Below are positions 849 through 4,121 of a stretch of DNA of 46,447 nt, one piece after another. Below the pieces are notes generated by a model, which had not been told where the DNA came from, made no database searches, and saw nothing but the letters and a program-made list of their open reading frames with translations. The stretch comes from Pontiella sp. (GTDB lineage Bacteria; Verrucomicrobiota; Kiritimatiellia; Kiritimatiellales; Pontiellaceae): the NCBI GenBank assembly GCA_050290185.1, contig JBNKHE010000013.1, positions 1-46,447 of the forward strand, given 5' to 3'. The stretch's first letter is position 1. Each line of letters opens with the position of its first letter. Position numbers and translations under genes: made by a program.

Positions 849-979
849 CTAGCTCTCCTCACACTTAGGGGTCAGTAAACATGAAAGGCGGAAAACCTCC
901 AAGACGCGTTGATTAACCCGTCATATAATCAATGAGGCACCGGCAATGAAGCCCTGCCAGATTAACAGGAGGCCCCGCC

Positions 980-2041
980 ATGTATTACTGCGGTATTGAT
1001 TATCACAAGAAGTATTCGGTTGTCAGTATTCAAAACGATACCGGCGACATCGTCCGCGAACAGCGGATCAACCACGCGTGGGAAGGCGTGTTCGAGCAGT
1101 TGCTCGGCTCCCTGGACGAGCCGGTGCACGTGGTGTACGAATCCAGCGTCAACTGGAGCTGGCTGTACGAGATCCTCGAGCGCATAGAAAACGTGGAGAA
1201 GATTGTTTTGGCGAACCCCTACAAGGTGAAGCTGATCTCGGAGGCGCAGATCAAGACGGACAAGATCGATGCACGCAAGCTGGCGTTGCTGCTTCGCCTG
1301 GATGTCATCCCGGCCTGCTACGTTCCTCCCCGCCCGACCCGCGACCGCAAGGAGGTCATCCGCCAGCGCATCTTCTGGGTTCGCGAGCGCACCAAGATCC
1401 GCAGCCGCATCCACAAGATCATCGCCCGCCAGCACAACCTGAACATGCCGCAGGTCACCGACCTGTTCGGACGCAAGGGGCGGGCGGCCCTGAACAAGGC
1501 GGTGCTCCCCGACCCGGATGCCATGATCCTGGGGCAAAATCTCGCGATGCTCGATACGCTCGATGCCTTGATCAAGGCGGACGAGGAACGCATCAGGGCG
1601 GATGGCGCGCAGGACCGGAGCGTGGAGATCCTGCAAAGCATTCCCGGTGTCGGGCTGGTAATCGGCAGCGTCATTGCCACCGAGATCGACACCATCTGCC
1701 GGTTCGGAACCTACGCGAAGTTCGCCGCCTACTGCGGCCTGGTTCCCTCCACCCACAGCTCCGGCGGCAAGACGCACCACGGGCGCATGCTCAACCAGTG
1801 CAACAAGTGGCTCAAGTGGGCGTTCATCGAGGCGGCCTGGGTGGCGGTGGGCTGCTCGCCCTACTTCGGCGGGCTCTACAAGGCCCAGCGCGCACGCGGC
1901 AAGAAGGCCAACACCGCGATTACGATAACGGCAAAACGCATGAGCCAGATCGTCTATCGGCTTTTGAAGGAACATCGGATGTACGAGGAACGAATTTACT
2001 CCGGCCGCTCTGGCATAGGACTGACGGCATCGGCGGCCTAG
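980..2041 (+). CDS. IS110-family transposase/recombinase (DEDD RuvC domain + Transposase_20)
   Basis: N-terminal GIDYHK, VYES, KTDKIDA (DEDD motif), SIPGVG helix-hairpin-helix, GLVPSTHSSGGK with the catalytic-type serine; GGAGG RBS. Confidence 0.97.
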   Translation: MYYCGIDYHKKYSVVSIQNDTGDIVREQRINHAWEGVFEQLLGSLDEPVHVVYESSVNWSWLYEILERIENVEKIVLANPYKVKLISEAQIKTDKIDARKLALLLRLDVIPACYVPPRPTRDRKEVIRQRIFWVRERTKIRSRIHKIIARQHNLNMPQVTDLFGRKGRAALNKAVLPDPDAMILGQNLAMLDTLDALIKADEERIRADGAQDRSVEILQSIPGVGLVIGSVIATEIDTICRFGTYAKFAAYCGLVPSTHSSGGKTHHGRMLNQCNKWLKWAFIEAAWVAVGCSPYFGGLYKAQRARGKKANTAITITAKRMSQIVYRLLKEHRMYEERIYSGRSGIGLTASAA

Positions 2042-2160
2042 CCGGATGCGCGTCTTGGGTCAGTATAGAGGGCCGGGGATCTGAAGTTGAGTTGTGTTGA
2101 ACAGGAACTGAGAGAAGGCTGATCAAGGAATCTCTTGCTGACGAAATAGCATATCAATTT
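1992..2160 (+). ncRNA. Putative bridge RNA / seekRNA of the IS110 element (ends approximate)
   Basis: Stem 1999-2011/2067-2078 and stem 2023-2034/2041-2054 enclose an internal loop. Its strands CATAGGACT and GGGTCAGT match the two halves of the reconstructed target. AGAGAAG (2111-2117) matches the element's own right end. Confidence 0.7.
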
Positions 2161-2190
2161 AGGAGGTTGACTTCTGTTTTTCAGAGAAGT

Positions 2191-2239
2191 CCGATATATG
2201 AATAATTTTATCTTGAGTATTAATATATCGTACTGACCC
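2191..2239. repeat. Remainder of the GGGTCAG...CTGACCC REP-like palindrome interrupted by the IS (other piece at 868-876)
   Basis: Empty site reads GGGTCAGTCCGATATATGAATA-13 nt-TATTAATATATCGTACTGACCC. Confidence 0.85.
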
Positions 2240-2324
2240 TTTTCTCGATATTGACGAGTTGGCCGGGGGGGGGGCAGTCGATGGCTCCCCGGCTGGACAT
2301 GAATGCTTTAACCAGGAATCAGGA

Positions 2325-4121
2325 ATGGAAATTTCGAAAAACCTTCTGCGTACTACCATAGCAGTAGTCGGCCTATTAATGATCGCGTCCTTGCTCGCAC
2401 GGGTATTTGGTAGCAAAGAGAATTCAAACCTGACTGAAACTCAGCTTCTTAAAGACAATGGCGGGACAAAACTGGTCGTTGTGATGCATGCGTTTACGAA
2501 TGATCGCGACGACATGAAACATGTAGTTGACGCAGTCGTAGAAGCCCACCCCGATGCCGATATACTTGCGCCAAACTACAACTCCTCATTATTTGCGAAT
2601 ACAAGCCTACCGCATACTGCGGCTAAGCTCAGCGCTACAATTGAATATTATTATAACGAGTCTCGAAAATCCGGACATGAGTATTCAGAAATCATTTTGG
2701 TAGGACATAGCATAGGCGCATTGTTGTGCCGAAAAAGTTATCTGTATGGTTTAGGGATCGGAACAGATTATCCTTATCCGGCATTTAAGAAACAGGACTG
2801 GGTTGATCAGACCTCAAGAATTATATTGCTTGCCGGAATCAACCGGGGCTGGAATCCAGACAAGCTTCCTCTAGGGCAGAAAATAGGAGGCCGGATAGCA
2901 TCTTGGATTGCCAGCTTTTTCGGCCACGGAAAAATGATTCATTCTGCCGAGCGAGGCTCACCTTTTGTCACCGATCTGAACCTCAACTGGAAGAAGGCAT
3001 CGCATGAAAACCTTATTAAAGCTCAAGTAATTCAGCTTCTAGGAAAAGACGACAAAATCGCTCCTCTCGAGGAACAAGAGGAAATACTCTCGACGCCAGA
3101 TTTCATCATGATGAATTTAATTCAGGATGCGACGCATGCAAACATCATAGACATGGACAAGCATTCGGATGATATCTCCTCTCTCCGGAAACGCAGTCTG
3201 TTTATTGACGCGCTAACCTTGCCCGAAGAACAATTAAAACAAGCATATGGATCTAATAGTTACGATCATCTAAATGATCTATATTCAGACCGCTACACGG
3301 TTAAACACATTGTCATGGTTGTTCACGGAATCCGAGATGAAGGGAAATGGATCGAAGCCCTTGAGGGTCAGTTAAACCAAAGCAAAGAGGCCTCTACGAT
3401 TATCGAAGGAGGTGAATATGGGTGGTTCCCAATGGGTAGATTTCTGCTGTTTAACGAGCGAGAAAAGTGGGTTAGATGGTTTGTGGATCAGGTTGCGCAT
3501 TTTTCATCCATCTATCCAGATGCCGAAATCAGCTTCATTGGCCATAGCAATGGAACCTATTTGTTGGCTAGTGCTTTGGAGCAATACACCGCACTCCGTT
3601 TTAACAACATCTACTTCGCCGGCTCGGTAGTTAGAACCGATTTCCCTTGGGATGATTACCTTAAATCATCTGATCGAGTTCATCATTTCAGAAATGACAT
3701 CGCTGTTGATGACTGGGTGGTCGCGTGGTTTCCACATTTTTATCAAATCATTAGAAAGCAACTTAACCTCAGCGATGACGGGTTTTTTAATATAGGAAGC
3801 GGAGGGTTCACAGGTTTTGAGCAGCAATCCGGTAAAGACAATGTTAACTATGTAACCGGAGGGCATGGGGGTGCATTGAAAAATGCTGAATCCATATCCA
3901 ATTTCATTCTTTTTAACGATACAGAGAAACTAACTGAGCAATCCGAATATAATAATCTTATGGTTATGAGTTCACACCTATGCTGGATTATCTGGTTTGC
4001 TATTATCTCCTTTTTCCTCGGTCTTGGCGCGCTGATTTGCAAGTTGCCATTCATCAAAAACAAAGTTATCGCAACTACAGTATACGTTTTCTTAGTTATC
4101 GCCATTTTGTTGACTATATAA
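2325..4121 (+). CDS. Membrane-anchored protein with two tandem alpha/beta-hydrolase domains
   Basis: N-terminal TM; two nucleophile elbows LVGHSIG and IGHSNG, each preceded by VMHAF / VVHGI; two C-terminal TMs. ATG 2325 preferred over TTG 2259. Visibly AT-rich. Confidence 0.8.
   Translation: MEISKNLLRTTIAVVGLLMIASLLARVFGSKENSNLTETQLLKDNGGTKLVVVMHAFTNDRDDMKHVVDAVVEAHPDADILAPNYNSSLFANTSLPHTAAKLSATIEYYYNESRKSGHEYSEIILVGHSIGALLCRKSYLYGLGIGTDYPYPAFKKQDWVDQTSRIILLAGINRGWNPDKLPLGQKIGGRIASWIASFFGHGKMIHSAERGSPFVTDLNLNWKKASHENLIKAQVIQLLGKDDKIAPLEEQEEILSTPDFIMMNLIQDATHANIIDMDKHSDDISSLRKRSLFIDALTLPEEQLKQAYGSNSYDHLNDLYSDRYTVKHIVMVVHGIRDEGKWIEALEGQLNQSKEASTIIEGGEYGWFPMGRFLLFNEREKWVRWFVDQVAHFSSIYPDAEISFIGHSNGTYLLASALEQYTALRFNNIYFAGSVVRTDFPWDDYLKSSDRVHHFRNDIAVDDWVVAWFPHFYQIIRKQLNLSDDGFFNIGSGGFTGFEQQSGKDNVNYVTGGHGGALKNAESISNFILFNDTEKLTEQSEYNNLMVMSSHLCWIIWFAIISFFLGLGALICKLPFIKNKVIATTVYVFLVIAILLTI

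Follow-up and report, generated by a model that had tools for sequence, protein, structure and literature searches.

The 46,447-nt stretch of Pontiella sp. DNA analysed here, which we call the window, contains near its left end a mobile element with a recombinase gene, inserted in one arm of a short palindrome (Table 1). The encoded protein matches PF01548 and PF02371 and reaches 212 bits with NF033542, for which the cut-off is 140 bits. Its DEDD residues and the catalytic Ser are all present, and are invariant across seven sequences. The element has a length of 1,314 bp when a single copy of the core is counted at the left; its left end lies 106 nt ahead of the start codon of the recombinase and its right end 146 nt past the stop codon.

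Table 1. Features of the element and of its insertion site, in window coordinates
Feature	Position	Strand	Remarks
Target terminal inverted repeat (TIR) head	868..875	+	GGGGTCAG; AG core = 874-875; the same head precedes two copies on contig C4
IS1111-group element	874..2187	+	Assigned from ends, core and 7/3 spacing of subterminal repeats
-10-like hexamer of predicted circle-junction promoter	877..882	+	AAACAT; inferred, weak: 3/6, 18-nt spacer
Left subterminal inverted repeat	881..893	+	7 nt from left end; 9/13 matches to right repeat
DEDD recombinase, 353 aa	980..2041	+	D7, E54, D94, D97, S261
Predicted target-binding loop of bridge/seek RNA	1999..2078	+	z -4.1; 0/200 shuffles
First target guide (predicted)	2014..2022	+	CATAGGACT; complementary to core and right flank; inside ORF
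Second target guide (predicted)	2057..2063	+	GGGTCAG; left flank and core; 2064-2065, handshake bases, equal the element's first two bases
Probable first donor guide	2086..2090	+	4/5 to left end; least certain position
Second donor guide (predicted)	2111..2117	+	AGAGAAG; right end and core; 2118-2119, handshake bases
-35-like hexamer	2167..2172	+	TTGACT; points out of right end
Right subterminal inverted repeat	2172..2184	-	3 nt from right end
Second core copy and body of interrupted TIR	2188..2204	+	Core copy = 2188-2189
Second, unoccupied TIR of dimer	2218..2239	-	29.3 bits; one base off guide just past core

Both junctions read as in the initial annotation of this DNA, GGGGTCAGT followed by AAACATG at 868–883 and CAGAGAAGT followed by CCGAT at 2182–2195. 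Deletion of 877–2190 does restore the hairpin that was claimed there, with 22-nt arms matched at 20 of 22 positions and a 13-nt loop. The site-specific insertion of an IS110-family element through a short core, without true duplication, is likewise borne out by the junctions, by further copies in the genome and by the core in the 46 clusters of relatives for which both ends are available. AG stands at the right junction in 40 of these clusters, in agreement with the CT core proposed for the other strand. The core had been given as AGT, and its third base is common to both junctions in 12 of the 46 clusters only. We therefore take the core to be 2 bp, AG/CT, with an incidental third shared T, so that the proposed ends had to be moved to 874–2187 (or 876–2189), while the empty site rebuilt from them stays the same.

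The subterminal repeats are degenerate, with 6 to 11 matches over 13 positions in 48 clusters; at positions 7–13, outside the anchors by which the ends were placed, 177 of 336 positions agree, against 117 after shuffling. In the accessible literature, repeats of the IS1111 group are given as perfect or near-perfect over 11–13 bp, and the available text of Durrant et al. gives subterminal repeats of 7–17 bp (PMC11208160). Rebuilding the circle joint yields a promoter-like pair of hexamers for 35 of 48 clusters, a count in which the -10 hexamer is partly set by the anchor, compared to 1 of 48 with the chromosomal flank. A promoter scan of the linear window missed this junction promoter, as expected. 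The left end also folds strongly between 877 and 985 (z -4.0), burying the start codon region, which might allow translational control.

Judged from its sequence, the element is a member of the IS1111 group of the IS110 family with an intact recombinase. Several features of that group are present: guides placed 3′ of the gene, repeats that start 7 nt in from the left end and 3 nt in from the right, and the order of the guides. Against the comparison with IS621 made initially, this is an IS1111-group element with its predicted guide RNA in the right end and is not IS621-like.

A predicted guide RNA and its covariation with the flanks

The predicted bridge RNA in the right end overlaps the last codons of the recombinase gene. 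A stem that opens into an internal loop is predicted for 1998–2080 (z -4.1), and each of ten outer stem pairs is kept in 63–65 of 65 clusters, several of them with changes on both sides. A fold sought in 2030–2190 alone gave a z of -0.1, because this segment cuts the loop, whose 5′ arm sits in the ORF. Rfam returned no match. The first reading of the DNA had overlooked that two guide segments of the element, 2014–2022 and 2057–2063, together spell out its target. The former, which matches the top strand, lies 5′ of the latter, which matches the bottom strand, and this is the IS1111 order. The reading frame reaches the end of the first guide or goes beyond it in 58 of 65 clusters, and thus the first guide is also coding. 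In the window, the donor-loop handshake base (G) is unpaired with the target.

Relatives were collected from 23 genome loci, the best 80 of 245 confirmed metagenome matches and 7 loci from 400 genomes of the phylum; viral contigs held no relative of the element. Of the resulting 111 loci, which include the window, one without a tblastn match and ten below 41% identity were removed, leaving 100 loci that form 76 clusters at 90% nucleotide identity. The ends and RNA segments were placed by fixed anchors from which the target guides were left out; the left anchor demanded AG seven bases ahead of the repeat, and most of the right end was set by the anchor used there.

The second target guide agrees with the left flank at 251 of 260 bases (n = 52; 166 after shuffling) and the first target guide with the right flank at 242 of 392 bases (n = 56; 129 after shuffling). 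Neither value is reached in 10,000 shuffles, which disregard relatedness, and collapsed assemblies may join flanks from different copies. The agreement ends with the guide, as the two bases past the second guide match at 15 of 104, i.e., not at all. The predicted handshake base after the second guide, in the target loop, equals base 1 of the element in 41 of 52 clusters (17.4 after shuffling). Its counterpart in the donor loop, which follows the right-end donor guide, equals base 1 of the target in 38 of 56 (15.9 after shuffling). The donor guides agree with the ends at 287 of 295 bases (shuffled, 270) and 204 of 250 bases (shuffled, 158). Clustering at 80% leaves the covariation unchanged. 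In a FastTree tree of the fetched relatives, with 62 elements and four outgroup proteins, several branches apart from each other show guide switches. Thus, across these alignments, the putative guides track the flanks, and the handshake pattern is as described for IS621.

Two further handshake comparisons were less informative. The second handshake base of the donor loop gives no signal (19 of 56 vs 16.4), and the target-loop handshake shows a weak excess of agreement with the target's own base (22 of 56 vs 12.6 at 90% clustering) that faded at 80%. We also considered whether the handshake base of the donor loop is kept from pairing where the core-adjacent base is common to donor and target; this was rejected, as 6 of 11 clusters fit it and 5 do not.

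The target repeat and the other copies

The target spelled by the guides is GGGTC-AG-TCCTATG. In the available text of Di Nocera et al. (2013), a TIRtron is a Y1 transposase gene enclosed by inverted repeats whose heads follow GGGGWSAS, repeats that are unrelated to REPs and also occur free as singles and dimers (PMC3733652). Most proteins of TIRtron type belong to subclass 2.1, with a long protein, Y---NP and a C-terminal HTH, according to the accessible part of a later study (Quentin et al., 10.1101/279083). The GGGGWSAS head is found at 868–875. The arm rebuilt at the left scores 36.8 bits on a TIR profile of the genus, and its interrupted form -25; at 16 bits or more the profile finds 11 matches in the real genome and none in the reversed one, its first 14 positions coming from a pattern picked with this site in view. 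The initial annotation proposed a GGGTCAG repeat family as the target, which agrees with the other copies sitting in such sites and with the presence of GGGTCAGTCCKATR as a motif in 28 of 52 further congeneric genomes (one match in the reversed control).

In the element's own genome, contig C58 has the sole perfect empty match, along with two others that each differ at two positions, and all three precede Y1 transposase genes. A homologue of the long Y1 protein of this genome is within 1.5 kb at 5 of the 29 loci listed, compared to 0.2% of the genome itself. All three inverted pairs of about 1.1 kb examined in the genus (L182, L188 and L189) enclose a whole TIRYT-like Y1 gene of 337–339 aa. 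The TIRYT-like partner proteins, of 335–339 aa, have HYH and Y---NP and score below the cut-off of the RAYT model; Pfam reported no C-terminal HTH in them. Among short inward-facing TIR pairs in congeners, 9 of 13 listed span 57–58 bp. The rebuilt site, of 57 bp, is 45/57 identical to one such congener dimer and has the length of most free ones, so that the hairpin is a gene-less TIR dimer. The target is the TIR of a TIRtron, a landing site apparently undescribed for IS110/IS1111 elements. No paper linking these elements to TIRYT or TIRtrons was found in the literature searched, to which ISfinder and subscription journals did not belong. Four motifs of the window are absent from the searchable part of the supplements of PMC11208160, in which sequences are indeed included, and five terms are likewise missing from what could be searched in those of PMC11187229.

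Other TIR-like DNA is present as well. A whole TIRtron at L001:1362-2486 (contig C10 of the same genome, G000) has a different TIR body (GGGGTCAGCCCG...), unmatched by the first guide of the element, and is preceded by a tandem partial head, as on C58 and C4. Degenerate TIR-like clusters lie in G000 at C4:30000-68300, C10:23000-28600, C1:55000-60100 and C6:231000-233300; several units are followed by a hairpin, and they may punctuate arrays of foreign genes. Free TIR dimers also occur inside long open frames (L190:95-151 and 1237-1302; L191:80-136 and 1276-1332), apparently in the same gene of two genomes and with the frame apparently unbroken.

The source assembly comprises 163 contigs, and the other copies that the initial annotation expected in like sites are there. 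Both ends of contig C4 carry a left end of the element, each after GGGGTCAG, and the start of C6 (minus strand) carries a right end, followed by TCCTATG and the remnant of a Y1 transposase gene, so that the junctions of the window copy are not due to chance. Two extra left ends and one extra right end imply at least three copies in the genome. The locus L012 holds a partial copy, 99% identical. Contig depth over the element is 2–5x that of the flanking DNA across four sequencing runs from a single study; this is consistent with such a count and gives no copy number. The right flank of the window copy matches the first guide at 5 of 7 bases and that of the C6 copy at 7 of 7; the former value is in keeping with the accessible literature, which reports zero to two mismatches between IS110 guides and their targets. 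As to the empty allele, the right flank (2190–2700) matched none of 52 other genomes of the genus. A joint of the element ends was in none of four DNA contig sets of one study (three of them marked as possible sources), sets that are uninformative on rare circles and empty alleles; loose ends in them match congener flanks and were left out of the copy count for this genome.

Truncated left ends of the same element, of 36–155 bp, are present in congeners (L060, L061 and L067). The flank GGGGGCAG, which differs from the guide at one base, is found at L059, L060 and L067. The DNA to the right of the window copy encodes, next to the TIR dimer (2259–4121), a low-GC protein of 620 aa with two weak alpha/beta-hydrolase regions, and this right-flank DNA was not found in the 52 congeners.

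Three other explanations have to be weighed. The junctions could be an artefact in which a collapsed repeat was joined to unrelated flanks, given that this is a draft assembly and that the public contigs break at both junctions, none of them spanning the stretch. We give this almost no credence, since the flanks rebuild one palindrome with 20 of 22 pairs and the 57 bp typical of the genus, an outcome not expected had flanks been wrongly joined. Another explanation takes the target for a hairpin- or cruciform-forming REP whose structure is part of the recognition, as the REP-like palindrome of the initial annotation would have it. The rebuilt site does fold as a hairpin, the C6 copy sits in a degenerate palindrome too, and IS621 and ISPa11 target REPs according to the accessible literature. 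However, an inverted partner within about 120 bp is present at only 2 of 36 sites of the guide class, so a palindrome is not needed; the arms lack a GTAG/GGAG foot, and the repeat fits the GGGGWSAS consensus of TIRs, stated to be unrelated to REPs, and flanks TIRYT-like genes. This explanation is thus very improbable in our opinion.

A more serious competitor, although still an unlikely one, is that the guides read a short sequence only, and that hits on TIRtron ends are a by-product for most of the clade, so that TIRs would be the target in this genus without being the selected one across the clade. In its favour, among the short contigs available and with one query, a TIRYT-like gene lies in the flank of 4 of 53 guide-class loci (0 of 28 others); as few relatives have such a gene nearby, TIR identity rests on the motif for most of them. 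The wide variation of the first guide and some guide-class sites that are unlike TIRs speak for it as well. On the other side, 37 of 44 distinct flanks have the fourth G of GGGGWSAS, a base that is not written in the guide; 40 of 65 second guides are GGGTC or GGGAC, each of which is contained in GGGGWSAS; tandem partial heads precede the site in 11 of 36 cases against 0 of 12; and, as said, a mere 0.2% of the element's own genome is so close to a TIRYT-like gene.

Proposed mechanism and comparison with known systems

We think it highly probable that this is an IS1111-group bridge-RNA element that excises as an AG-joined circle and is guided into the TIR heads of TIRtrons. Its ends and core, the matches between guides and flanks, their covariation and the identity of the repeat are all read from the DNA. 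The element would leave as a circle joined at the AG core, placing TTGACT of the right end ahead of the -10 hexamer of the left end, from which a transcript would run through the recombinase gene into the right end. The RNA from about 1999–2140 would then be bound by the recombinase. Its first loop would open the target by pairing with both strands, 2014–2022 with the core and right flank and 2057–2063 with the left flank and core, while the second part of the RNA would pair with the circle joint. Handshake bases may favour strand exchange, and insertion would follow without duplication past the 2-bp core. The programmed target is the head of a TIRYT/TIRtron terminal inverted repeat; being a repeat family of the genus, it offers a multi-copy, mostly intergenic landing site. 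Here, the insertion struck one arm of the gene-less 57-bp dimer. The circle, the promoter activity, the expression of the RNA and the chemistry are inferred from the literature on IS621 and ISEc11.

IS4321 and IS5075 are reportedly members of the IS1111 family that insert into inverted repeats at the ends of Tn21-family elements, and would thus likewise land in the terminal inverted repeats of another mobile element. The IS1111 elements ISEc11, ISPa11, ISKpn4 and ISPst6, as far as the available text of Siddiquee et al. (2024, PMC11187229) describes them, share with the window element the guide RNA region downstream of the gene, the repeats 7 and 3 nt from the ends, the junction promoter, the top-strand match 5′ of the bottom-strand match and natural reprogramming. 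This likeness is by description. The window element differs in its degenerate repeats, in a first guide inside the ORF and in its target, which is a TIRtron end and not a linear site, a REP or attC. TIRtrons themselves (PMC3733652; 10.1101/279083, accessible parts) are the host of the insertion and not the element, and no insertion sequence targeting TIRtrons or TIRYT was found in the literature searched.

With IS621, in the accessible parts of Durrant et al. (2024, PMC11208160) and Hiraizumi et al. (2024, PMC11208158), the window element has in common the DEDD plus Ser residues, the CT core on one strand, target guides of 9 and 7 nt, donor guides, and handshake bases that covary with the non-cognate DNA. 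In contrast, the predicted RNA of the window element is in the right end, its orientation with respect to the CT strand is the opposite one, it targets something other than a REP and the protein is only distantly related (43 bits). The mechanism is already known; what the element adds is a named landing site, the ends of the little-studied TIRtrons, and a complete map of the four guides of an IS1111-type RNA, including handshake covariation, as predicted from alignments. Some 65 natural sets of guide and target in a single clade offer ready tests of the programming rules of IS1111-type RNAs, and the exact TIR boundaries can be of use for the study of TIRYT transposases.

Guide changes within the clade

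GGGTC serves as second guide for 37 of 65 clusters, which are found in most parts of the tree, and the first guide varies. Guides such as GGCTC and TGCTC characterise nine clusters that group together (support 0.92), nested in a wider grouping with GGGTC members (support 0.96). The left flank could be recovered for 9 of 13 such loci, and 8 of these 9 rebuild sites of 108–128 bp bounded by RYYYAAC and GTTRRRY, which we take to be the form of attC. In these eight (L103, L112, L119, L123, L136, L137, L141 and L144) the element lies about 13 bp from the GTTRRRY end. Going by these rebuilt sites, the sister elements appear to be retargeted to attC-like sites, unlike the window element; an IS1111-attC group is described in the available text of PMC11187229.

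On a wider reading we are almost evenly divided, leaning slightly towards doubt: that this is a widespread IS1111 clade specialised on TIRtron ends, in which one guide would be fixed on the GGGGWSAS head and the other, within the last codons of the recombinase, re-tuned for each TIR subfamily, a nested branch having moved to the attC-like sites of integrons, for some by a single change of the fixed guide. If this is true, the clade is a natural series of bridge RNA reprogramming, and handshake pairing extends to the IS1111 group.

Besides, a branch with CTAGC, TTAGC or CTAAC guides (L129, L135, L138, L145 and L147) has G(C/T/G)TGCTG and consecutive A residues just after its insertion point. 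This repeat recalls the ends of insertion sequences or a MITE, and inspection of the flank ORFs by eye gave no obvious transposase. At L079, the right flank has a second target-loop region about 25 bp past the right end, without a gene, recalling the solo RNA cassettes reported for ISPpu9 in the accessible literature.
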